From Candidatus Kaiserbacteria bacterium (GTDB lineage: Bacteria > Patescibacteriota > Minisyncoccia > Phycocordibacterales > UBA2100): a stretch of 64,000 nt of DNA. Location: positions 526,199 through 590,198 of the forward strand of contig CP070993.1 in assembly GCA_017134395.1 (NCBI GenBank), in the 5' to 3' direction. Both the position numbers and the translations under genes were made by a program. This document shows positions 9,587-64,000 of this stretch, one piece after another. Below the pieces are notes generated by a model. That model saw only the letters and a program-made list of their open reading frames with translations. It was not told where the DNA came from and searched no databases. The stretch's first letter is position 1. Each line of letters starts with the position of its first letter.

Positions 9587-9658
9587 GCACCCGTGGTGAA
9601 ATGGATATCATTACGGTCTTCGGAACCGTCGTTGGGGGTTCGAGTCCCTCCGGGTGCA
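9587..9658 (+). tRNA. tRNA-Arg (anticodon TCG), no encoded CCA
   Basis: hand-folded cloverleaf: acceptor GCACCCG/CGGGTGC, D-stem GTGA/TCAT, anticodon stem ACGGT/ACCGT with loop CTTCGGA, T-arm GGGGG-TTCGAGT-CCCTC. Confidence 0.8.
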
Positions 9659-9723
9659 CAAATGGCCGCCCACAAAGCATTGCTTTGTGGGCGTTTGCCA
9701 TTTCCACACCCGGAGGGACTCGA
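9639..9723. repeat. ~85-bp imperfect palindrome containing the tRNA-Arg 3' end and its inverted copy around an inner hairpin
   Basis: ttcgagtccctccgggtg…cgcccacaaagca|ttgctttgtgggcg…cacccggagggactcgaa; also makes mirrored artefact ORFs on both strands. Confidence 0.75.
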
Positions 9724-9948
9724 AAAGAGTCGTCGGTATACAAGATAATGAAGCGAAGCGAAATTAGGCTTGTCGGCGACGTCGGGGCAGCGAGTACTTA
9801 GCAAGGCCGCAGCCGAGCTTAGTACTGGCGCCGAGTCCCCACTTTGTAAGAGGTCATGAAGGCGTCAGGAAAATTATTCGTGACCGAGTCCCTCCCCCAC
9901 TTCACAAAATTGCACCACGCCTAATTTGATATATAATCACTCTCACTT

Positions 9949-9977
9949 GCGGCTATATGAAACAAGCATATAGCCGC
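9949..9977. repeat. hairpin formed by a copy of the first 9-11 nt of tRNA-Gly(GCC) and its complement
   Basis: gcggctatatg-aaacaag-catatagccgc; tcaCttgcggctata here versus tcaTttgcggctata at the real tRNA 5' end (10104-10118). Confidence 0.6.
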
Positions 9978-10109
9978 GGCGTTCAGACACAATGTCTACG
10001 CAAAGCGCATTGATGTCCCCCGATTTCACGTTCTTGTAAGCGAGCTTCCAGAAACATGAAATCGGAGCACATCTTTCTGCAAAATGCAGAAGCGCTCTGC
10101 TCTTCATTT

Positions 10110-10180
10110 GCGGCTATAGTTTAGTGGTATGACACGTCCTTGCCAAGGATGAGACGGGAGTTCGATTCTCCCTAGCCGCA
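10110..10180 (+). tRNA. tRNA-Gly (anticodon GCC), no encoded CCA
   Basis: acceptor GCGGCTA/TAGCCGC, anticodon stem CGTCC/GGATG with loop TTGCCAA, T-arm GGGAG-TTCGATT-CTCCC. Confidence 0.9.
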
Positions 10181-10181
10181 C

Positions 10182-10228
10182 AAATACACAGAAAGACTAG
10201 GTTCTCGCCTAGTCTTTCTGTGTATTTA
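10182..10228. terminator. hairpin immediately after tRNA-Gly
   Basis: aaatacacagaaagactagg-ttctcg-cctagtctttctgtgtattt (20-bp arms). Confidence 0.6.
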
Positions 10229-10350
10229 GGCATTGTGCATAGAGAATCGAAAGACGGAAGCCTGCGTGCCTAAGCACGAGTAAGGGCTGAGTCCGGCCTG
10301 GAGCACTTAGTAGAATTAAGCCTGAAAGGCGCAAATTATACTTAGTGACT

Positions 10351-10372
10351 GGAGGCGATTCTCCCTAGAAAA
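10351..10372. repeat. partial direct copy of the tRNA-Gly(GCC) T-arm and 3' end
   Basis: ggaggCGATTCTCCCTAGaaaa shares the 13-mer cgattctccctag with tRNA-Gly 10163-10175. Confidence 0.6.
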
Positions 10373-10409
10373 CTGACCAATTCTGGCCAGTTTATACTCG
10401 GAAGGTTTT

Positions 10410-10511
10410 TTAAAGGACAAAATTTGTTGATAACTCTGGGGATAGGTGGATAAAGGACATTTCTAACGGACATAAAAATGTCCGTTATCCCCAAAAATGT
10501 CCTTTATCAAC
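10410..10511. repeat. GGACAT/ATGTCC palindromic repeat module, copy B
   Basis: taaaggacaaaattt … ataaaggacatttctaacggacataaaaatgtccgttat … aaaaatgtcctttatc. Confidence 0.7.
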
Positions 10512-10608
10512 AGACTTATGAACAGTTTTATCTTATTTGTGCACATTTGTGTTTCATAAGAAACAATATGAACTTTTCCTAGTATTAGAGCCATTTAACT
10601 CTTCCACA

Positions 10609-10628
10609 TGTTTTCACGTGAAAACATA
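10609..10628. repeat. TTTCACGTGAAA palindromic unit (copy 1)
   Basis: atgttttcacgtgaaaacat, a 20-bp palindrome with a CACGTG core. Confidence 0.7.
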
Positions 10629-10747
10629 GAGAAGATTTAGGACAAGAATGGATGTTGAGGGTGTGAAACAAGCGGGTTCAAAATGACATATTTTCTCTAT
10701 TTTTGCACGTTTGGCCCTAGTTAGTGTGACTTACTGTACTTATTAGT

Positions 10748-10764
10748 ATTTCACGTGAAACTAT
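10748..10764. repeat. TTTCACGTGAAA palindromic unit (copy 2), abutting the 3' end of the K+ channel gene
   Basis: atttcacgtgaaactatg. Confidence 0.7.
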
Positions 10765-11549
10765 GAAGTGAGTGAAGAATGCTTGTGTTTAACTGGCTCA
10801 CCACAGTGTTTACATCGGATTGCGTCGATATCATGAGCGCTTAAGCCACAATTTGGGCATGTATAGTGCACTTTTGCCCCATGAAATATAGTTCTCGTAA
10901 GTTGCAAAAAGAGGGTAATACCTATAAGCATAGCCACCACAGAGAGCATTTTGCCCCACGGTCCTGCAGCTGTGACGTCACCATAGCCAGTTGTTGTAAG
11001 GGTGGAAACAGTGAAGTATAGTGCATCAAGGTAGGAATTTATATGTGGATTGAATTGTGCTTCAGCAACAAAGACTATGGCTGTCATTATTGCGAGAAAC
11101 ACAAAGAAGTTGAGTAGACTTTCAAGAGTTGCGCTGTATTGGTAGATAGTTTTGCTCTCTTTTTTGGCTAAATTCACCAAGTAGTAGGTGCGAAGGATCT
11201 TGAGTGAGCGCAAAACTCGCAAAAGTGCCAAGTTTCCTACCAAAAGTGGTGCAAAGAGTGAGACAATGACTAAAATATCTATTACGCTAAAGACGTTAAA
11301 GACAAACGAGAGCCTTCGGGGTGAAATCCATAAGCGCGCAAGATACTCTAAGAGGAAAAGAGTACCAAATACAATTTCCAGCACCTTCGTGAAAGAATGT
11401 CCTGGATTTGCAGCTTCTAATAGGAAAATGCCAAAAACTGCTACGTTTAAGAGGATAAGCACCCGGTTAAAGATAATGCTTTTACGAGTGCGCTTGTGAA
11501 AGAGAGTAGTGAGTTGCTTTTTTACTTTGGGAAAAGAACTTTTCTTCAT
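10761..11549 (-). CDS. voltage-gated-type (6TM) potassium channel with C-terminal zinc-ribbon
   Basis: K+ selectivity filter TLTTTGYGDVT; S4-like LALLRVLRSLKILR with arginines at every third position; C-terminal CPNCG…CKHCG. Confidence 0.85.
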   Translation of the reverse strand: MKKSSFPKVKKQLTTLFHKRTRKSIIFNRVLILLNVAVFGIFLLEAANPGHSFTKVLEIVFGTLFLLEYLARLWISPRRLSFVFNVFSVIDILVIVSLFAPLLVGNLALLRVLRSLKILRTYYLVNLAKKESKTIYQYSATLESLLNFFVFLAIMTAIVFVAEAQFNPHINSYLDALYFTVSTLTTTGYGDVTAAGPWGKMLSVVAMLIGITLFLQLTRTIFHGAKVHYTCPNCGLSAHDIDAIRCKHCGEPVKHKHSSLTS

Positions 11550-11562
11550 TACAATATGCTAG

Positions 11563-11580
11563 CATAGTTTCACGTGAAAT
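11563..11580. repeat. TTTCACGTGAAA palindromic unit (copy 3) in the 32-bp divergent intergenic region
   Basis: catagtttcacgtgaaat directly upstream of the yraN ATG, next to palindrome atgctagcat. Confidence 0.7.
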
Positions 11581-11581
11581 C

Positions 11582-11968
11582 ATGAGTAGAAACAAAGATA
11601 TTGGGAATACTGGAGAGCACATAGCCGCACGTTTTTTAGAGACGAAGGGGTTTTCTATTTTAGGTAAGAATTACAGCAAGAAATGGGGTGAACTCGACAT
11701 TATTGCTAAGAAAGAAGGAGTAGTGCATTTTGTGGAAGTAAAAACAATTTCACGTGAAACTCAAAACATAGTTTCACGTGAAAATAATTCTGCGTATAGA
11801 GCGGAAGAGAATATGCATAAGAAAAAGATAGAGCGTTTACATAGGGCTATTCAGAGTTATATAGAGGAGTTCAATGTAAAAGAGGATTGGCAGTTAGATT
11901 TAGTGACTGTAGTTCTTTTTATAAAGGACAAAAAAGCTGAGTGTCGATTTGTAGAAAATGTCCTTTAG
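11582..11968 (+). CDS. yraN: YraN-family (UPF0102) endonuclease-like protein
   Basis: EHIAARFLETKGFSILGKNY…GELDIIAKKEGVVHFVEVK; contains an in-frame tandem insertion of the palindromic unit. Confidence 0.75.
   Translation: MSRNKDIGNTGEHIAARFLETKGFSILGKNYSKKWGELDIIAKKEGVVHFVEVKTISRETQNIVSRENNSAYRAEENMHKKKIERLHRAIQSYIEEFNVKEDWQLDLVTVVLFIKDKKAECRFVENVL
11747..11785. repeat. two tandem TTTCACGTGAAA units (copies 4 and 5) inside the yraN coding sequence
   Basis: atttcacgtgaaactcaaaacatagtttcacgtgaaaat, translated in frame as ISRETQNIVSREN. Confidence 0.75.
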
Positions 11969-11997
11969 ATTATAAAGGACATTCTTACGGACATTTT
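11930..11997. repeat. GGACAT/ATGTCC palindromic repeat module, copy C (overlaps the yraN 3' end)
   Basis: ataaaggacaaaaaa … gaaaatgtcctttagattataaaggacattcttacggacatttta. Confidence 0.7.
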
Positions 11998-12150
11998 AAA
12001 TAGAGAATTCAGTGCTGCACAAGATAATAAAGAGACTCAGACCTATGATCTAATATATTGGAAGAATGAAGAAATGTGTGCAATAATGCCCCCGACCCAA
12101 AAGCACTCATTGTTTCATTAGTGTTCGTAACTGAATGGGTCATACGCTAT

Positions 12151-12224
12151 CGGGGCGTAGCATAGTGGTAGTGTACTCGCTTTGGGAGCGAGCGGTCCGA
12201 GTTCGATTCTCGGCGCCCCGACCA
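12151..12224 (+). tRNA. tRNA-Pro (anticodon TGG) with encoded CCA
   Basis: acceptor CGGGGCG/CGCCCCG, anticodon stem CTCGC/GCGAG with loop TTTGGGA, T-arm CCGAG-TTCGATT-CTCGG, 3' ACCA. Confidence 0.9.
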
Positions 12225-12236
12225 AAATCTTAAAGT

Positions 12237-12260
12237 CCATGCGCAGCATGGGCTTTTTAG
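12237..12260. terminator. intrinsic terminator after tRNA-Pro
   Basis: cccatgcgcagcatggg followed by cttttt. Confidence 0.6.
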
Positions 12261-12535
12261 ATTCTAATTTGTATATCTGCAGTAGAGAAACTTGACAGTA
12301 TTATGGCTGGCAGTATCTTATATATATGCACGTGAACATACATAAGATTATATTTCTGAATCTGATTGGTCTCAGCGAGGCATCTGTGTGGGTACGAGTA
12401 TAAATATAAAAAATTTTAAACTCAAGCACCCGCACAAAGCGGGCTTTTTGTTTGGTTTTTCAGTCAGTGTATATAACGTTTTGGTATGTACTGACTGGGG
12501 AAGCAATGAGGCTTTTTCAGAAAAAGGAGGTCAAT

Positions 12536-12721
12536 ATGACCGAAAGAGAACGACATTCGGAGGACCCCGTCCTAACCACCAATGGGATTGATGGTATGAG
12601 TGAGGGGGATGAATTGGACAAACCCAACGAAAATACTGCGCCTGTAGTACATAAATTGGGATGGGATCCGGAAGAGCCGGGTGAGAATCTTTCAGACAAA
12701 CGCTGTCGTTTAGGCGGCTGA
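12536..12721 (+). CDS. small acidic hypothetical protein (61 aa)
   Basis: strong SD AAAGGAGG 6 nt before the ATG; followed by a terminator at 12730-12768; sequence MTERERHSEDPVLTT…. Confidence 0.45.
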   Translation: MTERERHSEDPVLTTNGIDGMSEGDELDKPNENTAPVVHKLGWDPEEPGENLSDKRCRLGG

Positions 12722-12729
12722 ACCTTCTG

Positions 12730-12768
12730 CGAGCGTGGCGGAGACATCTCTGTCACGCTCGTTTTATA
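12730..12768. terminator. intrinsic terminator
   Basis: gcgagcgtg-gcggagacatctctgtc-acgctcg plus tttt. Confidence 0.6.
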
Positions 12769-13945
12769 TTGGGAAGTAGGGGAGTAGGTTTGGTACAGTA
12801 GTTTCTCCAAACTCCTGTACACGATTTTCAAAGTCACCGATATTTAGAAAGGATAAGAGAGTATTTCCGGTGTGTATTTGCAGACTTCTATCAATATGCG
12901 AAAGAGTGAGCGCACGCAAGTCGCGCTCTGCTGTAGTATTTCCTACACTGCTGGTCACAATAATTCCAACCAATTTGTTCCATTGGTTCATTACTGCTCC
13001 GCCTGAGGACCCACCTTGAGCAACGATTGTCCCACCAAGTGATAGAATATCGATGAGAGCTTCTGAGAACGTATACACTTTCTGTATTTCTACTGTTGTC
13101 GATACCGGCCAGAGGCCTCGTTGTAAGAGCGCGCTACCTAGAAAGCCTGCTGGATAACTAGCGAGTAATACAGGATCATTCATTGTGGTAACTGCTTCTC
13201 GTGTGTCGAACGATACGAAAGGAAAAGTGAGCGGCTTTTCAGTCCCGTCTGTAGTACCAGTTATGTAGAGAAGCGCCCAATCATGTTCTCCAGTTCCTGT
13301 TGGTGTCTCCAATTGTAAATCTTTGCCATGATTTTGTGCCCACATATACGGGAAAGTAAGTATCTCAGCAGTGTATTTTGTTTTGGCGGGGGATCCAGAG
13401 CGTATAACACACGAAATAATGGCGTTAGGGTGCTCTTTCACTAGCAAATATTGTGCCACATGTGCGTTGGTAAGAATTACTCCTCGTGGATCGATTATAA
13501 TCCCGCTACCTATTGCGCCAGATACAGACGAACCAGGTGTGCTAGCACAGAGTATGTTTACTAAGGCAGGGGAGGAGACAGTATTTACAACTTCTAAAGG
13601 AAGCGGTGGAGTTTCGTAAAATGAAGGTGTCGGAGTCGGTGCCTCTATGATTGGCGAAGTGACTATAATTTCTGATTCGATAATTATTTCGGGAGTGATC
13701 TCTACGCCAGCTGGCAGATTTATATGCTCCGACTCTATTTGTGGCTCTTGTAATACAGCAGGTTCTTCAATTAGCTCTTCATCAACTACAAGAGTCGCAC
13801 TTTGCTCTATTGAGCTTATTACGGCACCTTGTTGCGTGTATCCAGGTATAAACGTAGAAACGGCTAATAACGTAGCAGTGGCTACACTGGCTAGGAATAG
13901 ATAGATTGTAGTAATAAGGCTCTCTAACATGCCGATAGCATACAC
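12764..13945 (-). CDS. trypsin-like (S1 family) serine protease with N-terminal membrane anchor
   Basis: catalytic His context ILTNAHV, serine motif GGSSGGAV, N-terminal TM/signal segment. Confidence 0.75.
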   Translation of the reverse strand: MYAIGMLESLITTIYLFLASVATATLLAVSTFIPGYTQQGAVISSIEQSATLVVDEELIEEPAVLQEPQIESEHINLPAGVEITPEIIIESEIIVTSPIIEAPTPTPSFYETPPLPLEVVNTVSSPALVNILCASTPGSSVSGAIGSGIIIDPRGVILTNAHVAQYLLVKEHPNAIISCVIRSGSPAKTKYTAEILTFPYMWAQNHGKDLQLETPTGTGEHDWALLYITGTTDGTEKPLTFPFVSFDTREAVTTMNDPVLLASYPAGFLGSALLQRGLWPVSTTVEIQKVYTFSEALIDILSLGGTIVAQGGSSGGAVMNQWNKLVGIIVTSSVGNTTAERDLRALTLSHIDRSLQIHTGNTLLSFLNIGDFENRVQEFGETTVPNLLPYFPI

Positions 13946-14090
13946 GTGCTTGAGCTTGAGAGCCAGTCTGGTAGTATGTGCCTTGTCCTAATAAGACATG
14001 TGGGCGTAGTTACGTGCAAAATAACTATCCCACAACAGCCTTGCTGTTGTAGATTCGGGTAGTGGACACAGTAGAAGGGTAGAGATAATT

Positions 14091-14161
14091 GCGGGTGTAG
14101 TTAAGTGGTATAACAACAGCCTTCCAAGCTGTGGTCGGGAGTTCGATTCTCCCCACCCGCA
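14091..14161 (+). tRNA. tRNA-Gly (anticodon TCC), no encoded CCA
   Basis: acceptor GCGGGTG/CACCCGC, anticodon stem ACAGC/GCTGT with loop CTTCCAA, T-arm GGGAG-TTCGATT-CTCCC. Confidence 0.9.
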
Positions 14162-14571
14162 CATTAGAAGACAGCTACATTGATTTCAGAGAAGACCCTT
14201 GTAACTAGCGGTGGATTTCACTGGAATGTTCGAGTGTATAAGACAGTACGTACGTGGTGCTCGTAATATGTAGAGCTAGAGCCTTTTGAAAGTTCGAGAA
14301 GTTGCCAACTCTTGGGGGCATTGCTGTTCGTATACTGCTATTCCAATGGTAGCTCGTTCTCATCTTTGTCTTTCCACGGCCACGAATTCTCTCGTTCCAT
14401 GCGTTCATATTCACGCGTACACAGCAAAAAGTACTGTTCAAGTTCTGGTGGCAAGTTGCTCTCATTTTCCATAGAGACATGATACCGCATTAATTCTATT
14501 TCGATATTTTTCAGCAACTAATAAAGAAAACCCAGTCACCGTTAAGTGTCTGGGTTTTATGGCGGAGCCAA

Positions 14572-58005: not shown

Positions 58006-59280
58006 ATGATTGGAGTATTTTTCCAAAAACTAAAACTTATAGTCAGAGACGAATCGCTACGGAATCGCGTTTTGTTTATGCTTGGTGCGTTGATTCTCTT
58101 TCGTATTCTTGCAACTATCCCGATTCCGGGAGTGGACATTGCACGTCTTGATCAATTTTTTGCAAACAACCAATTCCTAGGCCTATTGAACATTTTCTCA
58201 GGAGGTGGGCTTTCTAACCTTTCCATTGTAATGCTTGGTGTAGGTCCATTTATTACTGCATCAATCATAATGCAGCTTATGACTGTGCTTTCGCCAAAAA
58301 TGAAGGCAATGTACCAAGAAGAAGGAGAAGCAGGGCGTGTTAAGTTTACACAGTTCTCACGATATCTCACTGTTCCTCTTGCTTTCATGCAAGGATTCGC
58401 TTTCCTTACCTTGCTCCAGCAAAACGGTATCGTACCTCCGTTGGAGTTCGCTGCGATGATGACGAACGTTATGGTTATCGCAACTGGATCACTTCTTCTT
58501 ATGTGGCTCGGAGAACTTATCACCGAATTTGGTATCGGCAACGGAGTTTCATTGATTATTTTCGCGGGTATCGTTGCAACTCTACCAAGTACAGTAAGTC
58601 AACTTATTTTTACATTCGATATTTCACAAATACCATTGTACTTAGGATTTGCAGTTGCTGCTGTTGCAGTGGTTGCTGGAGTAGTATTTATTACTGAGGC
58701 AGAACGGCCAATTCCTATCACCTATGCACGGCAGACTCGTGGTGCAAAACAGTCAGGTGGTATTTCTACTTACTTACCATTACGAGTAAACCAAGCAGGT
58801 GTTATCCCAATTATTTTCGCACTTTCGATTCTTCTGTTCCCACAGGTGCTCGCGGCATTCTTTGTGAATAGCGCATTCCCAATTATTGCAACCATTGCAA
58901 CAGCCATTACAAACGGACTTACAAACCAGATTATTTACGGAAGTCTGTACTTTGCTATGGTCTTCTTCTTCACCTACTTCTACACTGCAATGACATTCGA
59001 CCCGAATCGAATTGCTGACAACCTTCAAAAAAGTGGCGCATTTATCCCAGGAGTTCGACCAGGAAGTCATACGTCAGAGCACGTAGGGAACATTTTGACG
59101 CGAATTACCCTTGTTGGAGCGCTCTTTCTTGGTGGTATTGCCGTACTTCCTATTGTTATGCAAGGAATCACTGGTATCACGACACTAACTATCGGTGGAA
59201 CCGCACTTCTTATTGCGGTATCTGTAGTTCTTGATATCGTGAAGCGTGTTGAGGCACAGGTTTCTGTCCGCGAATACTAA
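58006..59280 (+). CDS. secY: preprotein translocase subunit SecY
   Basis: 10 TM helices, 424 aa, follows rplO. Confidence 0.95.
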   Translation: MIGVFFQKLKLIVRDESLRNRVLFMLGALILFRILATIPIPGVDIARLDQFFANNQFLGLLNIFSGGGLSNLSIVMLGVGPFITASIIMQLMTVLSPKMKAMYQEEGEAGRVKFTQFSRYLTVPLAFMQGFAFLTLLQQNGIVPPLEFAAMMTNVMVIATGSLLLMWLGELITEFGIGNGVSLIIFAGIVATLPSTVSQLIFTFDISQIPLYLGFAVAAVAVVAGVVFITEAERPIPITYARQTRGAKQSGGISTYLPLRVNQAGVIPIIFALSILLFPQVLAAFFVNSAFPIIATIATAITNGLTNQIIYGSLYFAMVFFFTYFYTAMTFDPNRIADNLQKSGAFIPGVRPGSHTSEHVGNILTRITLVGALFLGGIAVLPIVMQGITGITTLTIGGTALLIAVSVVLDIVKRVEAQVSVREY

Positions 59281-59398
59281 TCTCTTTTATATTTTTCAAA
59301 ACGCCCGGTTGCTAGCAGCTGGGCGTTTTGAGTTATGTAGACCTGTGGTGTAGAAAAAATAAGCTGGATTCTAGCGTTTGCTTTGATACACTCTTTGC

Positions 59399-59989
59399 AT
59401 GTATGGAAAGAAACAGGTGCTTGTTATTGCAGGTCCCACGGCAAGCGGAGAGAGTACATTTACTCGCGAGCTCATAGATTCTTTTGATAATTTTACTAAG
59501 TTGATTTCAGCAACTACGCGAAAACCGCGTTTAAATGAACAACATGGTGTTGATTATTATTTCTTTACTAAAGAGGAATTCTTTAAGGAGGTTGAGGCTG
59601 GCAATATCATTGAGCACACGCATGTAGCAAACAGAGATGCCTATTACGGTGCGTATAAACCAGACCTCGACGCGAAACTCATTAAACATCTCAATGTCAT
59701 AGCAAATACTGATCCGAAGGGCGCTAAATTCTTTAAAGATAATTACGGGGCTACAACAATTTTTTTACGACCAAAATCTTTAGAAGTTATTGAGGACAGG
59801 TTACGACGGCGTGATCCAGATATTACCGAAGAGGAAGTACAGAAGCGTGTTTTGAGTGCCAAAAAAGAAATAGAGGAAGCAGAGGGGCGTTTCGACCATA
59901 TTGTATGGAATACAGACGGGGAGTTTGCTGACACCATATTTAATGTGGTTGAGATTTTGAAGCAAGAAGGCTATAGTGTCCCGGAATAA
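59399..59989 (+). CDS. guanylate kinase-family protein with non-canonical P-loop (GPTASGES)
   Basis: GMK signatures ATTRKPRLNEQHGVDYYF; Walker-A Lys replaced by Glu. Confidence 0.7.
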   Translation: MYGKKQVLVIAGPTASGESTFTRELIDSFDNFTKLISATTRKPRLNEQHGVDYYFFTKEEFFKEVEAGNIIEHTHVANRDAYYGAYKPDLDAKLIKHLNVIANTDPKGAKFFKDNYGATTIFLRPKSLEVIEDRLRRRDPDITEEEVQKRVLSAKKEIEEAEGRFDHIVWNTDGEFADTIFNVVEILKQEGYSVPE

Positions 59990-59994
59990 CTAAT

Positions 59995-60564
59995 ATGCAT
60001 CTGAAAAATATAGTAATTATTTCTGGGCCATCTGGTGCTGGCGAGGACTCTGTTATTGAAGGTCTGAGTGAGCACGTAACAGTGAATCGAGTAATAACTA
60101 CTACGACACGAAGTCCAAGAGAGGGAGAGAGTGATGGCGAGGATCATTACTTTATTTCGAAAGAGGATTTTGAGGAACGTATCGAAAGTGGCTCAATGAT
60201 AGAATGGGCAAAACAATACAATGGGAACTTTTATGGTGTTACAAAAGAAGAGCTGCAACGAGTAAATGATCTAGATGGAGTTGGAGTATGGAAAATTGAA
60301 TATCAAGGAGTTATTACTGCAAAGAAACTTTTCCCAGACATAATATCCATATTTCTCATGGCGGAGTCACTTGAGGTGTTAGAAGACCGTATAAGGGCCC
60401 GTTCTGATGTTTCAGAAGAGTTTATAGCTGAGCGTATGAAATATACGCAAGAGTGGCTCAAACACGCTGATATATACGATTATTCACTTATTAATAAACA
60501 AGGACTGTTACACGAGACTATACAGGAGGTCGTGGACATTCTTCGTAAAGAACAGTATCTTTAA
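59995..60564 (+). CDS. guanylate kinase-family protein, second paralog, with non-canonical P-loop (GPSGAGED)
   Basis: TTTRSPREGESDGEDHYF; Walker-A Lys replaced by Glu and Ser/Thr by Asp. Confidence 0.7.
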   Translation: MHLKNIVIISGPSGAGEDSVIEGLSEHVTVNRVITTTTRSPREGESDGEDHYFISKEDFEERIESGSMIEWAKQYNGNFYGVTKEELQRVNDLDGVGVWKIEYQGVITAKKLFPDIISIFLMAESLEVLEDRIRARSDVSEEFIAERMKYTQEWLKHADIYDYSLINKQGLLHETIQEVVDILRKEQYL

Positions 60565-60571
60565 GCACGTT

Positions 60572-61168
60572 ATGAATGAAACAAAAGCAAAGACAGTTCT
60601 TTTTTTCGGACCTTCAGGTGCAGGAAAAGGGACACAGGTAGAACTATTAAAAGAGCATCTTGCAAAAAAGTCAGACAGAAAAATTGTGTACATTGAAATG
60701 GGAGGGCTGTTGCGTGCAATGGTTGCCCGAGGTGACCTAACTGGCAAGTTAACACATGAAATTATTTCAAACGGTAAACTCATGCCCAGTTTTATGCCGA
60801 TATACTTACTAACTCAGTACCTCGTAGATAACTTTACTGGCGAAGAACATATTGTTGCAGATGGCGTTACGAGACGAGAAGGACAGGCAAAGGCGTTTGA
60901 TGACGCGATGGCATTTTACGGACGTGAAGATTACGAAGTTGTTTTGATGGAACTTTCTCCTGAGGTGGCACTTGAGCGATTGCTTGCCCGCGGACGTAAC
61001 GATGATTCTGAAGAAAAGATACAGCGGCGAATTGATTGGTACAATAAAGATGTACTTCCCGCACTTGATGTAATGAAAGAAAGAGGACGTACAATTCACA
61101 GAATTGACGGTGCTCCAGAAGTTGAGGAAGTACATAAAGAAATTTTAAAAGCATTACAGCTTGCATGA
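60572..61168 (+). CDS. adk: adenylate kinase (short, no zinc lid)
   Basis: FFGPSGAGKGTQ canonical P-loop; position after secY as in spc operons. Confidence 0.85.
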   Translation: MNETKAKTVLFFGPSGAGKGTQVELLKEHLAKKSDRKIVYIEMGGLLRAMVARGDLTGKLTHEIISNGKLMPSFMPIYLLTQYLVDNFTGEEHIVADGVTRREGQAKAFDDAMAFYGREDYEVVLMELSPEVALERLLARGRNDDSEEKIQRRIDWYNKDVLPALDVMKERGRTIHRIDGAPEVEEVHKEILKALQLA

Positions 61169-61920
61169 TAATCCGAACGGAAACAGATCGAGATAACTTA
61201 CGAGAAGGAGGGCGACGCCTTGCTACTATATTACGCAAAGCGTCAGAAAAAGCTGTAGCAGGTGTATCCTTAAAAGATATTGACTCATATATTCTCTCTC
61301 TTATAGAAGAATACGGTGACACACCGTCATTTACTGGTTACGGAGAGCCGCCATTTTCTGGCGTATTTTGTTTGTCAGTAAACGATGGGATTGTGCATGG
61401 TATTGCGAACGAATACGAACTTATTGAAGGGGATCTGCTAAAAATCGATGGAGGTATTTGGCACGAAGGATTGTGTACTGATTCAGCGATTACTATTGGA
61501 ATCGGTACTATCGCAAAAGAAGATCAGGAACTTATATGGGCAACGAAAGAAGCACTTAATGCACAAATTAGAGTTGCGGTAGCAGGAAATACCATTGGAG
61601 ATATCGGTCATGCCGCTGAGGAGATAGCAAAAAAGCACGGATACGGATTTCCAAAAGAGTTAGGTGGTCACGGCGTTGGCCTTCAAGTACATGAGCCTCC
61701 GTTTATTGCAAACTACGGAAAGAAGGGTACTGGCGAAGTATTAAAAGCAGGTGATGTGCTTGCACTCGAGCCGATGTTTGCCAGAGGTTCTGGAAAGATA
61801 CGTCTTGCCAACGACGGATGGTTGTATGAAATGGTAGACGGTTCACAAAGTGCTCACTTTGAACATTCAATTATTGTTGGGGAAATAGAGGCAGAAGTGT
61901 TGACAGTCGAAAACGAATAA
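61165..61920 (+). CDS. map: methionine aminopeptidase type I
   Basis: pita-bread fold metal ligands (D…D…H…E…E pattern), 251 aa, follows adk. Confidence 0.9.
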   Translation: MIIRTETDRDNLREGGRRLATILRKASEKAVAGVSLKDIDSYILSLIEEYGDTPSFTGYGEPPFSGVFCLSVNDGIVHGIANEYELIEGDLLKIDGGIWHEGLCTDSAITIGIGTIAKEDQELIWATKEALNAQIRVAVAGNTIGDIGHAAEEIAKKHGYGFPKELGGHGVGLQVHEPPFIANYGKKGTGEVLKAGDVLALEPMFARGSGKIRLANDGWLYEMVDGSQSAHFEHSIIVGEIEAEVLTVENE

Positions 61921-61945: not shown

Positions 61946-64000
61946 ATGCCGCACATGGAAGGGTCAACACCTGATGTATCCTCAACAGAACCCGTTGAGC
62001 GTTTTCGCACACCAGAGGAAGAACTTGCGTACTTACGCGAACGGGTGCGTATAAAAGAAACTGAACTTGAAGGAGAAAAGTCAGGCTTCGAGAAAGACAG
62101 AATTGCAAAAAGAGAAATTATTAAATATCACGATACCCCGGCCGAAGATGTTCTACACGAACGATACCAAACGTCAGAAAGTCATATATTACGCGAAAAA
62201 CTACGTCTCGAACCCGAAGAGCATGATGTACAGATTGATGAGCTTTTGAAAATGGTGGCAGATAAGGGTATTAAAAATACTCTCGCAGTGGTAAGTAAGA
62301 TGGGTAGTGCACATCTTGAAGATGATTTACATCGAGCGCTTGTTCAGTATGTTGCTGAAGGATTTTCAACACAGGGAGTACGGAAAGGCTCTGAAGACTG
62401 GAAAGCGTTACACATGGTCCTCTATGAGGTTTCGCTTCCAGCCCAAACTGCAAACGACAAAAATAATCAAAACCAAGATCTCGAAAAACTTCTTGCATCC
62501 ATGGAGCAATTTTATGCTGGGATGCTGAGTGTTATGGGAAAGGGAAAACTCCAGAAAAAAGATATTTTTTCTGTTGAGATTGCAGTGCATCAAGGAAGCG
62601 AAGAGGCGATTTTTTATGTTGGGGTACCACGCAAAAAAAGAGATTTGTTTGAACGACACCTTATTTCCATATTTCCTAACGCTCAAATCGAAGAAGTGCG
62701 CAGTGATTACAATATTTTCAGTTATGGAGGAGTTCACGCTGGGGCATATGGTGTTCTCGAAAGAAGTCCGGTGTATCCAATAAAAGAATACAAAGAATTT
62801 GTGCACGATCCACTAAACATCGTACTTTCAGCATTCAGCAAGCTTAAAAAACATGGAGAAGGAGCGGCTATTCAATTTATTATTGGCGACGACGGAGATT
62901 CATATAACCGCCAATATAAAAAGGTAGTTGATTATCTTCGCGATGGAAAAGAAGCAAAAAAGGCAATACGTCATGGAACATCACCATTTCGTGAAGCAGT
63001 AGACGCGCTTGGTGAGAATCTTGTTGATATAGCGATGAATCGCTCAAAGAATACGATAAACGATAAAGCAGTTGATCAAATGACTCTCGAGACAATCACT
63101 AAGAAGGTTAATAGTCGTATTGTTCCAGTAAACATTCGTATACTTGCTTCAGCACAAGAAGAGGGTCGTGCGGAGGACATTATTGAAAACATTGCATCAA
63201 CATTTAACCAATTCGAAGAAGCGCAGGGTAATGCAATCAAATTTATCCACGAACGTGGCGCAGCATTACGGAAATTCATGCACGCATTCACTTTCCGGAC
63301 ACTCAACTTTAAAAGACTACAGCCGCTTTCTCTTACGGAACTGACATCCATGTACCATCTTACGGGACAAGGAGTTTCAACATCGCGTGAACTTAAACAA
63401 ACACGTGCAAAACATGTTTCAGCTCCTATTGAAGTATCTGCAGACGAAGACGACGAAGAGCCAGTACAAAAGGCACCTTACGTACCAACTCCTGCACCTG
63501 TTGACCAACATAAAGAAGAAGTAGTTGCCCCAGCCCCAATGGCGAATACACAAAAAAGACGTGGTGTAATACTCGGAAAGAACACGTTTGGCGGTACTGA
63601 TACGATGGTCAAGTTCTTAGCGGAAGACCGTATGCGTCACTTCTACGAAATTGGACAAACGGGAACAGGTAAAACAAACCTGATGAAGAATATGATCATT
63701 CAAGATATTAAGAACGGAGAGGGGTGCTGTTACATTGATCCACATGGTTCAGATATTGTTGATATTTTGGCAGCTATTCCACCTGAAAGACACGACGATG
63801 TTATCTATTTCGACCCAAGTTACACAGAACGCCCGATGGGTCTTAACATAATGGAATATAATCCAGATTTTCCTGAGCAGAAAACGTTTGTAGTAAACGA
63901 AATATTCAGTATTTTTGAAAAACTTTTCTTGGCAAAATCACCTGAGTCGCTTGGCCCGATGTTTGAGCAGTACTTCCGTAACGCTGCACTTTTGGTGCTT
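61946..64000 (+). CDS. large P-loop NTPase (TraD/VirD4/HerA-like ATPase domain) with ~550-aa unique N-terminal region; 3'-truncated by the window edge
   Basis: open frame from the ATG at 61946 to the window end with no stop; Walker A YEIGQTGTGKTN followed by CCYIDPHGSDIV…VIYFDPS; absent from the ORF track only because it is incomplete. Confidence 0.6.
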   Translation, partial: MPHMEGSTPDVSSTEPVERFRTPEEELAYLRERVRIKETELEGEKSGFEKDRIAKREIIKYHDTPAEDVLHERYQTSESHILREKLRLEPEEHDVQIDELLKMVADKGIKNTLAVVSKMGSAHLEDDLHRALVQYVAEGFSTQGVRKGSEDWKALHMVLYEVSLPAQTANDKNNQNQDLEKLLASMEQFYAGMLSVMGKGKLQKKDIFSVEIAVHQGSEEAIFYVGVPRKKRDLFERHLISIFPNAQIEEVRSDYNIFSYGGVHAGAYGVLERSPVYPIKEYKEFVHDPLNIVLSAFSKLKKHGEGAAIQFIIGDDGDSYNRQYKKVVDYLRDGKEAKKAIRHGTSPFREAVDALGENLVDIAMNRSKNTINDKAVDQMTLETITKKVNSRIVPVNIRILASAQEEGRAEDIIENIASTFNQFEEAQGNAIKFIHERGAALRKFMHAFTFRTLNFKRLQPLSLTELTSMYHLTGQGVSTSRELKQTRAKHVSAPIEVSADEDDEEPVQKAPYVPTPAPVDQHKEEVVAPAPMANTQKRRGVILGKNTFGGTDTMVKFLAEDRMRHFYEIGQTGTGKTNLMKNMIIQDIKNGEGCCYIDPHGSDIVDILAAIPPERHDDVIYFDPSYTERPMGLNIMEYNPDFPEQKTFVVNEIFSIFEKLFLAKSPESLGPMFEQYFRNAALLVL

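Follow-up and report, generated by a model that had tools for sequence, protein, structure and literature searches.

P-loop kinases are regarded as unable to work without their Walker A lysine, whose presence or absence is routinely used to call such proteins active or dead. In the guanylate-kinase-like (GK) domains of the MAGUK proteins (PSD-95/DLG, CASK, MPP) the GxxGxGK glycine loop is gone and a proline in the hinge prevents closure; these non-catalytic domains work within SH3-GK/PDZ scaffolds in phosphopeptide binding. The WNK ('with no lysine') protein kinases are also missing the motif lysine; once presumed inactive, they draw the charge from a lysine on a neighbouring strand. Here we describe two adjacent genes, P1 and P2, that encode guanylate-kinase-fold proteins with glutamate at the Walker A lysine position. 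They lie in a stretch of 64,000 nucleotides (nt) from Candidatus Kaiserbacteria bacterium (assembly GCA_017134395.1, contig CP070993.1, positions 526,199 to 590,198), which has a G+C content of 43% and is referred to below as the window. P1 and P2 are anciently diverged guanylate kinase paralogues characteristic of Parcubacteria, not degenerating copies. The reading that we favour, with a probability of roughly 0.45, is that both still bind guanosine monophosphate (GMP) and adenosine triphosphate (ATP), and that at least P2 phosphorylates GMP with a rebuilt cation centre standing in for the Walker A lysine.

The P1 and P2 families were aligned to the yeast, E. coli and human enzymes and read against a 2025 structural and mutational study of human GMPK (PMC12297293). 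In the human enzyme, K17 hydrogen-bonds the gamma-phosphate and AlF4-, and the K17A mutant has no detectable activity while its ATP binding is reduced only about 3-fold. S18 is a Mg2+ ligand, and S18A is likewise without detectable activity; the Walker-B-like D101 holds Mg2+ waters and directly ligates K+. For S37, R41, R44, E72, R133, R137, R148 and N171, either mutation abolishes activity or the residue binds substrate, whereas T83A and D103A barely affect the enzyme (PMC12297293). In pyruvate kinase, exchange of Glu117 and Lys117 sets K+ dependence or independence, the charge of the lysine substituting for K+ (PMC4374775). In Parcubacteria, gmk has been described as 'poorly represented' while adk is present (PMC4508563).

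A sequence-only reading of the window had assigned both proteins to the guanylate kinase (GMK) family, and the searches made here confirm this. Each matches PF00625 (Guanylate_kin) from end to end (E 1.6e-27 for P1 and 3.9e-34 for P2), with no other domain found in the Pfam search; both are single-domain proteins of 189-196 amino acids (aa). The GMP-site motifs are ATTRKPR...GVDYYF in P1 and TTTRSPR...GEDHYF in P2. Among solved structures, the best sequence matches are true guanylate kinases (E 1e-23 to 1e-29), with MAGUK GK domains far weaker (E 1e-5 to 1e-8). AlphaFold2 models of the two proteins are confident (mean predicted local distance difference test, pLDDT, 92.0 for P1 and 95.3 for P2) and resemble solved GMKs with template modelling (TM) scores of 0.8-0.9, the top Protein Data Bank fold matches of P1 being GMK enzymes. 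The P2 model superposes on the Pseudomonas aeruginosa GMK with bound GMP and adenosine diphosphate (ADP; 8EGL) with a TM score of 0.89 and a root-mean-square deviation of 1.9 A. A protein identical to P2 is annotated by NCBI as 'guanylate kinase [Candidatus Kaiserbacteria bacterium]'. Against the NCBIfam model TIGR03263, however, P1 scores 135.0 bits and P2 154.6 bits, both under the equivalog cut-off of 160.45 bits. The model for PhnN ribose 1,5-bisphosphokinase (TIGR02322, cut-off 156 bits) gave P2 only 57.8 bits and did not list P1, the PADLOC anti-phage defence models had no match to either protein, and the PHROGs matches were to the generic guanylate kinase family only.

The replacement of lysine by glutamate, also pointed out from the sequence alone, is present in both P-loops and extends far beyond this genome. 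The P1 Walker A motif reads GPTASG-E18-S-T (GPTASGES at residues 12-19), and that of P2 reads GPSGAG-E17-D18-S (GPSGAGED at residues 11-18). Homologues were taken as the 120 closest database matches to each protein, from several independent data sources and assemblies of Kaiser-, Pacei-, Moran- and Magasanikbacteria. Among the matches listed, glutamate occupies the lysine position in all 120 of P1 (G-E-[ST], identity down to about 48%) and all 120 of P2 (G-E-D, identity down to about 55%). No true orthologue had the canonical GK[ST] loop that would have pointed to a sequencing error. Both glutamate codons are in use over the fetched loci, GAA 54 times and GAG 28 times in P2, and GAG 5 times and GAA 3 times in P1. 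An alternative genetic code or recoding is excluded because GAG is read as ordinary glutamate elsewhere in both genes, for example in the conserved PREGE motif, and orthologues use GAA as well as GAG. Both open reading frames (ORFs) are intact and of full length, and the ratio of nonsynonymous to synonymous substitution rates (dN/dS) of the window genes versus their closest orthologues is 0.05-0.09, with dS saturated in most comparisons. When one genome from each GTDB species was scanned, at least 240 genomes carried P2-type genes. This conservation result is solid: the change from lysine to glutamate is neither a sequencing error nor a sign of decay, but has been fixed and selected.

When the substitutions are mapped on the GMK alignment, the equivalents of K17 and D101 are changed in both proteins and that of S18 in P2 only. 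The equivalents of S37, R41, R44, Y53, E72, Y81, R133, R137, R148 and N171, together with the P-loop glycines, are kept in 94-100% of the 120 homologues of each family. These comprise the hinge residue and K+ ligand (S37), GMP-site residues (R41, R44, Y53, E72, Y81), the adenine contacts (R133 and N171, kept in at least 98% in both families) and the arginines that contact the phosphates and the transition state (R137, R148); at most of these positions, mutating the human enzyme leaves it without detectable activity. The GMP site as a whole (S37, R41, R44, Y53, E72, Y81 and D103) is conserved at 88-100%, and is made up of S/T37, R41, R44, Y53, E72, Y83 and D105 in P1 and of T35, R39, R42, E70, Y80 and E102 in P2. 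In the P1 family E18, N103, R41, R44, Y53, E72, Y83, R134 and R138 are invariant over 54-120 homologues (R134 and R138 in 120/120), while D105 (Asp in 119/120), N171 (118/120) and R150 (Arg in 113/120) are nearly so. In the P2 family E17, D18, K100, R39, R42, E70, Y80, R132, R136, R147 and N167 all stand at 120/120, as do all ATP-side residues other than the lysine (the P-loop glycines and the equivalents of human R133, R137, R148 and N171). At the Y53 position, where its family has tyrosine in 117/120, the P2 of the window is an exception, with His51 and then Tyr52, and two guanine contacts are altered in P2, Thr/Ser to Val and Asp to Glu. What is kept is the pattern expected of a site that would still bind an adenine nucleotide and GMP. 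It also makes the MAGUK-like binding modules that had been proposed from the sequence unlikely: the GPxxxG glycine loop does not vary, the hinge has Ser/Thr in 119/120 (P1) or Thr in 115/120 (P2), and the adenine contacts and the LID arginines are retained.

A possible mechanism for P2 follows from the three residues that have changed together. The lysine that contacts the transferred phosphate, the serine that ligates Mg2+ and the Walker-B aspartate that holds Mg2+ waters and K+ have become Glu17, Asp18 and Lys100. Asp18 could bind Mg2+ directly, and the ammonium group of Lys100 would reach from the neighbouring strand into the canonical K+ site, where the Mg2+ waters are positioned. Lys100 would thus place a positive charge beside the reacting phosphates in lieu of the lost lysine, as a relocated lysine. 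In the model, the strand 96-99 ends at K100 and the helix 17-24 is capped by E17. The geometry fits such a relocation because human D101, the equivalent of K100, ligates K+ and Mg2+ waters, S18 ligates Mg2+, and the model superposes on a closed, ligand-bound GMK. In P1 the corresponding set is Glu18-Ser19-Thr20 and Asn103. Here a metal or ammonium ion bound by the glutamate might take over from the lysine; alternatively, P1 might be a non-catalytic partner that binds GMP and ATP. The fold, the residue states with their conservation and selection, the phyletic spread and the gene contexts are direct results; from them we infer the binding of ATP and GMP, the replacement of Lys17 by Lys100 or by a bound cation, and the role as the GMP kinase of the cell.

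The three changes in P2 are also coupled in its relatives. When 1.8 billion representative proteins were searched, the top-scoring lysine-bearing relatives of P2 have a GKD[STA] loop together with a Walker-B Lys/Arg, and one such GKDT+K cluster (P0509/P0517) is the annotated gmk of SAR202 Chloroflexota. The pair D18 and K100 places P2 within the pattern of this subgroup; P1 does not have the pair. Co-occurrence was counted over the 150 representative proteins with the best match to the P2 profile, which contributed 164 aligned domains. A Walker-B Lys/Arg accompanies the aspartate after the Walker A position in 50 of 74 domains and occurs in none of the 90 domains without that aspartate; it accompanies Glu/Gln at the lysine position in 22 of 26, versus 27 of 136 of the lysine-bearing forms. 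The forms GKD+K, GQD+K and GED+K all exist among the relatives of P2. Taken with the coupling, they suggest an order of events in which the Ser-to-Asp and Asp-to-Lys swap came first, with the lysine still kept in Chloroflexota, and the Walker lysine was lost later in Patescibacteria. The GKD subtype, which keeps the lysine and has Asp for the Mg2+-ligand Ser and Lys/Arg for the Walker-B Asp, is widespread in its own right (also P0386, P0392, P0429 and P0431) and may be a K+-independent form; literature searches found no description of it.

P1 has a different set of relatives. P1 and P2 are 32% identical, similar to the distance of each from the E. coli or yeast enzyme. A third family found in related genomes, here called GKN, has the P-loop GPSGSGKN[TA], in which the lysine is kept, the Mg2+-ligand Ser is replaced by Asn and the Walker-B position is variable. 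Many motifs otherwise specific to P1, among them YGxYxPDL and a C-terminal EGY, also occur in GKN, which appears to be the sister of P1. In a bootstrapped neighbour-joining tree built with the three key columns masked, support was 0.80 for P1, 0.95 for GKN and 0.62 for P1 plus GKN. Since P1 groups with the lysine-bearing GKN and P2 with the GKD forms that have a Walker-B lysine, the Walker lysine was probably lost twice, independently, in two old paralogues. This argument uses family-level grouping and profile-score ranking, the nesting of P2 within the GKD+K forms coming from the ranking and from an unsupported neighbour-joining topology. About two thirds of the GKN proteins lack the guanine-binding Glu in register, and the GKN substrate may therefore not be GMP; in these genomes the guanine pocket is retained in the lysine-less paralogues, and the lysine-bearing GKN seems the poorer fit for GMP, a point in favour of P1 and P2 as GMP kinases. 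The 32% identity and the separate subfamilies rule out a recent tandem duplication and, together with the low dN/dS, dispose of the suggestion made from the sequence alone that these might be recently duplicated, decaying genes.

Kinases using an unusual mechanism, another explanation put forward in the sequence-only reading, best fit the retained catalytic residues and the coupled, compensating changes. That the divergent P1 and P2 genes serve as the gmk of the lineage is supported by the reported scarcity of gmk in Parcubacteria where adk is present, and their scores just under the TIGR03263 cut-off may explain why gmk appeared poorly represented. Within the 64-kb window there is no third GMK-like gene and no second, canonical gmk, and none of the latter turned up in the +/-6 kb flanks of 80 related loci. 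In 69 of these 80 species loci, P2 has no other GMK-like gene within +/-6 kb, and in many genomes P1 likewise stands alone over that distance. A more tentative proposal is that Parcubacteria phosphorylate GMP with P-loop kinases that lack the Walker A lysine in both families, the charge being supplied in P2 by a Walker-B-strand lysine in the K+ site and in P1 by a cation held by the glutamate. If so, they would provide the first natural example of a P-loop phosphotransferase that demonstrably functions with the Walker lysine absent, a loss that appears to have taken place twice, probably independently, in one bacterial radiation. Several points weigh against a rewired GMP kinase. Human K17A and S18A are both inactive, and the canonical mechanism thus predicts that both proteins are dead; P1 has no obvious compensating lysine; and, relative to the canonical site, each active site is more negative by one unit of charge. 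In some proteins a P2-type domain is joined to a transmembrane helix and an extracytoplasmic domain, an architecture that would suit a sensor or scaffold better than an enzyme of central metabolism. The co-occurrence counts ignore phylogeny, and nodes of the neighbour-joining tree deeper than the families lack bootstrap support.

The main alternative is that P1 and P2 are pseudoenzymes that bind GMP, or another guanine nucleotide such as (p)ppGpp, together with ATP or ADP, and close, but transfer no phosphate, acting as nucleotide-state sensors or regulators. Binding without turnover is the default expectation from the human enzyme, in which loss of the lysine kills activity and leaves most of the ATP binding (PMC12297293). 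The lysine site tolerates Glu and, in some relatives, Gln, and the genes are often paired with a second GMK-like gene (P1+P2, P2+GKN or P1+GKN). Membrane-anchored P2-type fusions exist, along with one fusion to a NUDIX and one to an S1 domain, and the neighbourhoods are rich in translation genes (secY/adk/map, rpsA/tilS, rluD/rplS). The targets of such regulators might be, for example, the products of adk and map, the translation machinery or a lysine-bearing paralogue. Pseudoenzymes usually drift at several positions of this kind, however, while here the catalytic apparatus beyond the lysine is invariant, including three phosphate-contacting arginines and the P-loop glycines. In P2 the loss of the lysine is tied to a specific compensating lysine. 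In many genomes P2, and separately P1, has no GMK-like companion nearby, and gmk is otherwise scarce in Parcubacteria (PMC4508563), yet the cells need guanosine diphosphate (GDP) and guanosine triphosphate (GTP). On balance we consider pseudoenzymes less likely than rewired kinases.

A changed reaction or substrate is improbable. P1 and P2 could be kinases of other (deoxy)nucleoside monophosphates that cover for scarce cmk and tmk, could use a different phosphate donor, or could be GMP-dependent nucleotide hydrolases with the glutamate as general base. Like gmk, cmk and tmk are poorly represented in Parcubacteria (PMC4508563), three GMK-like families have radiated in these genomes, P2 departs from canonical GMK at two guanine contacts, and one fusion pairs a P2-type domain with a NUDIX hydrolase. 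The key determinants of guanine and GMP binding (Ser/Thr37, Glu72, both Tyr and both Arg) are nevertheless kept, the two altered contacts are ones that barely matter in human GMPK (T83A and D103A; PMC12297293), and the near-universal adenine contacts of both families argue for an adenine-nucleotide donor. The weakest explanation, that a sequencing or assembly error or recent duplicates becoming pseudogenes produced the glutamates, has in its favour only the prior expectation that a working kinase never loses its Walker A lysine, and its chances are negligible because the glutamate is conserved in 240 of 240 listed homologues with both codons in use, dN/dS is low and the AlphaFold2 models of these intact, only 32% identical proteins are confident (pLDDT 92-95).

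Both genes lie between secY and adk, where they had been placed from the sequence alone (Table 1), and the neighbouring adenylate kinase has the canonical loop that had been noted there. P1, P2, adk and map form a unit of four tightly packed genes 3' of the end of the ribosomal-protein/secY cluster. The window secY served as the phmmer anchor, secY also being upstream of GMK-like genes in relatives, and the gene at the map position in the related locus L084 carries Peptidase_M24.

Table 1. Features of the P1-P2 locus and related genes (window positions unless a locus is named; residue rows give codon positions)
Feature	Position	Strand	Remarks
secY	58006..59280	+	424-aa ORF, upstream neighbour; equivalent gene in L084 carries Pfam SecY
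Terminator-like hairpin, then UUUUGAG	59295..59331	+	Within the secY-P1 spacer (59281-59398)
Extended -10-like box TGATACACT, candidate promoter	59384..59392	+	Read from sequence; stops 6 nt short of the P1 ATG
P1, guanylate-kinase-fold protein, 196 aa	59399..59989	+	Pfam PF00625; 5 nt to P2
P2, guanylate-kinase-fold protein, 189 aa	59995..60564	+	Pfam PF00625; 7 nt to adk
adk	60572..61168	+	Pfam ADK, E 1e-21; canonical GPSGAGKGTQ loop; 7 nt after P2
map (methionine aminopeptidase)	61165..61920	+	4-nt overlap with the adk stop; final gene of the packed unit
Human K17 equivalent	P1 59450-59452 (GAG); P2 60043-60045 (GAG)	+	P1 Glu18, P2 Glu17; Walker A lysine replaced in 120/120 of each family
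Human S18 equivalent	P2 within 60043-60048 (E17-D18)	+	P1 Ser/Thr family-wide (Ser19 in window P1), kept; P2 Asp18, Mg2+ ligand replaced
Human D101 equivalent	P1 59705-59707; P2 60292-60294	+	P1 Asn103, P2 Lys100; Walker-B Asp replaced in both, conserved family-wide
GKN genes at the secY-adk slot	L004:6414-7157; L084:2233-2817; L005, L006, L009, L090, L096-L098

The spacer between secY and P1 contains signals that bear on how the four genes are expressed. The hairpin has a predicted RNA folding energy of -31.3 kcal/mol (z = -8.1), and 0 of 200 shuffled sequences fold as well, although a simple terminator scan did not flag it. Comparable hairpins, with an A-tract, a GC-rich stem and a T-tract, are found 3' of secY in L001-L006, L009 and L088, and in most of 14 related loci the start codon of the first GMK-like gene is preceded, at a distance of 5-10 nt, by a box similar to the -10-like one (TGnTAnnnT). 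Because a hairpin follows secY and a -10-like box precedes P1, the transcription unit is likely a leaderless P1-P2-adk-map unit with its own promoter, and not simple read-through from secY. Co-expression of P1 and P2 with both translation and secretion genes had been proposed. Joint transcription with adk and map is likely, while co-expression with secY is doubtful given these signals, and in some relatives the genes lie elsewhere.

The order secY-P1-P2-adk-map recurs in the closest relatives (L001-L003 and L088). Other relatives have secY-P2-GKN-adk-map (L004-L006, L009) or secY-P1-GKN-adk-map (L084, L090), or a single gene in the secY-adk slot, which may be P1 (L095), GKN (L096-L097) or, elsewhere, P2. 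In Moranbacteria P2 lies between rpsA and tilS/ftsH, and rluD and rplS flank P1 in other Parcubacteria; the neighbours of P1 and P2 are usually translation or nucleotide-kinase genes. Pairing of P1 and P2 is common but not obligatory, because each also occurs singly or with GKN, and an obligate P1/P2 heteromer was rejected on the same grounds, though the two proteins may interact facultatively. A metagenome scan with the P1 profile returned mostly canonical GMKs, and only its first 13 or so loci were informative.

Several fused forms of these domains were encountered. In three Patescibacteria proteins (P0363, P0364 and P0366; 423-450 aa), a P2-type GED domain is combined with a transmembrane helix and, at the C-terminus, a domain of about 220 aa that has no annotation, and the fusions P0365 (334 aa) and P0368 (327 aa) include a P2-type GED domain with a NUDIX hydrolase and a GQD variant with an S1 RNA-binding domain (Moranbacteria). 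Some GTDB records that carry P2 are titled Saccharibacteria, Bdellovibrionales, Gammaproteobacteria, Micavibrio or Lysobacteraceae (L004, L005, L007, L012, L015, L017, L018, L053, L067 and L076). L004, L005 and L007 show the Parcubacteria-like order of secY, GMK-like gene, adk and map, and the oddly titled records are probably mislabelled metagenome bins.

The usual infA-rpmJ-rpsM-rpsK genes do not follow map. Instead, a large ORF begins at 61946 and continues past the end of the window (64000); it has a GQTGTGKT P-loop and a weak, sub-threshold match to DUF87/HerA. In L084, map is followed by a GARS gene, a small reverse-strand ORF and then a gene with a TraG-D_C domain. Far upstream, four ordinary-looking tRNA genes (Arg-TCG, Gly-GCC, Pro-TGG and Gly-TCC) lie on the + strand over 4.6 kb (9587-14162), and apart from tRNAs an Rfam scan of the window found no family reaching threshold.

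Full-text literature searches, including searches with the motif strings, found no description of lysine-less guanylate kinases from Parcubacteria or Patescibacteria. The lysine has been lost lineage-wide, under purifying selection, in the apparent main guanylate kinase genes of a large bacterial group. Either the Walker lysine rule has an exception, in the form of a relocated lysine or a metal substitute, or there is a bacterial counterpart of the MAGUK-style conversion of an enzyme to a sensor. Because the divergent genes score just under the cut-off of the standard model, metabolic reconstructions and completeness estimates of Parcubacteria may misjudge GDP and GTP synthesis. The natural series GKD+K, GQD+K and GED+K also offers a ready-made mutational path.

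Among known systems, those that rely on a displaced charge offer parallels to P2 in mechanism. WNK kinases are an analogy only, having the unrelated protein-kinase fold and not a P-loop fold, and the relocation of the lysine in P2 is itself a proposal. The putative role of K100 in P2 likewise recalls Lys117 of pyruvate kinase, as an acid/lysine exchange at a monovalent-cation site in a different enzyme family. Like MAGUK GK domains, P1 and P2 are derived from GMK, have departed from the canonical catalytic P-loop chemistry and keep the GMP pocket at least in part; unlike them, they have invariant P-loop glycines, hinge Ser/Thr and LID arginines and no SH3/PDZ architecture. The canonical guanylate kinase (Gmk/GUK1/GMPK, EC 2.7.4.8) resembles P1 and P2 in fold, length, single-domain build, GMP site, hinge, adenine contacts and LID arginines, and a further likeness is that P1 and P2 adjoin the gene of another nucleoside monophosphate kinase, adk. 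It differs from them at the Walker A Glu of both proteins, at the Walker-B position (Asn in P1, Lys in P2), in the Asp that replaces the Mg2+-ligand Ser in P2, and in the TIGR03263 scores below cut-off. Because the Walker lysine, the Walker-B Asp and, in P2, the Mg2+-ligand Ser are missing, P1 and P2 would not, from their sequences, be filed as ordinary Gmk. P2 shares its Ser-to-Asp and Asp-to-Lys/Arg swap with the GKD[STA] guanylate kinases that have a Walker-B lysine, such as the SAR202 gmk, but these keep the Walker A lysine that P2 has exchanged for glutamate and some relatives for glutamine.

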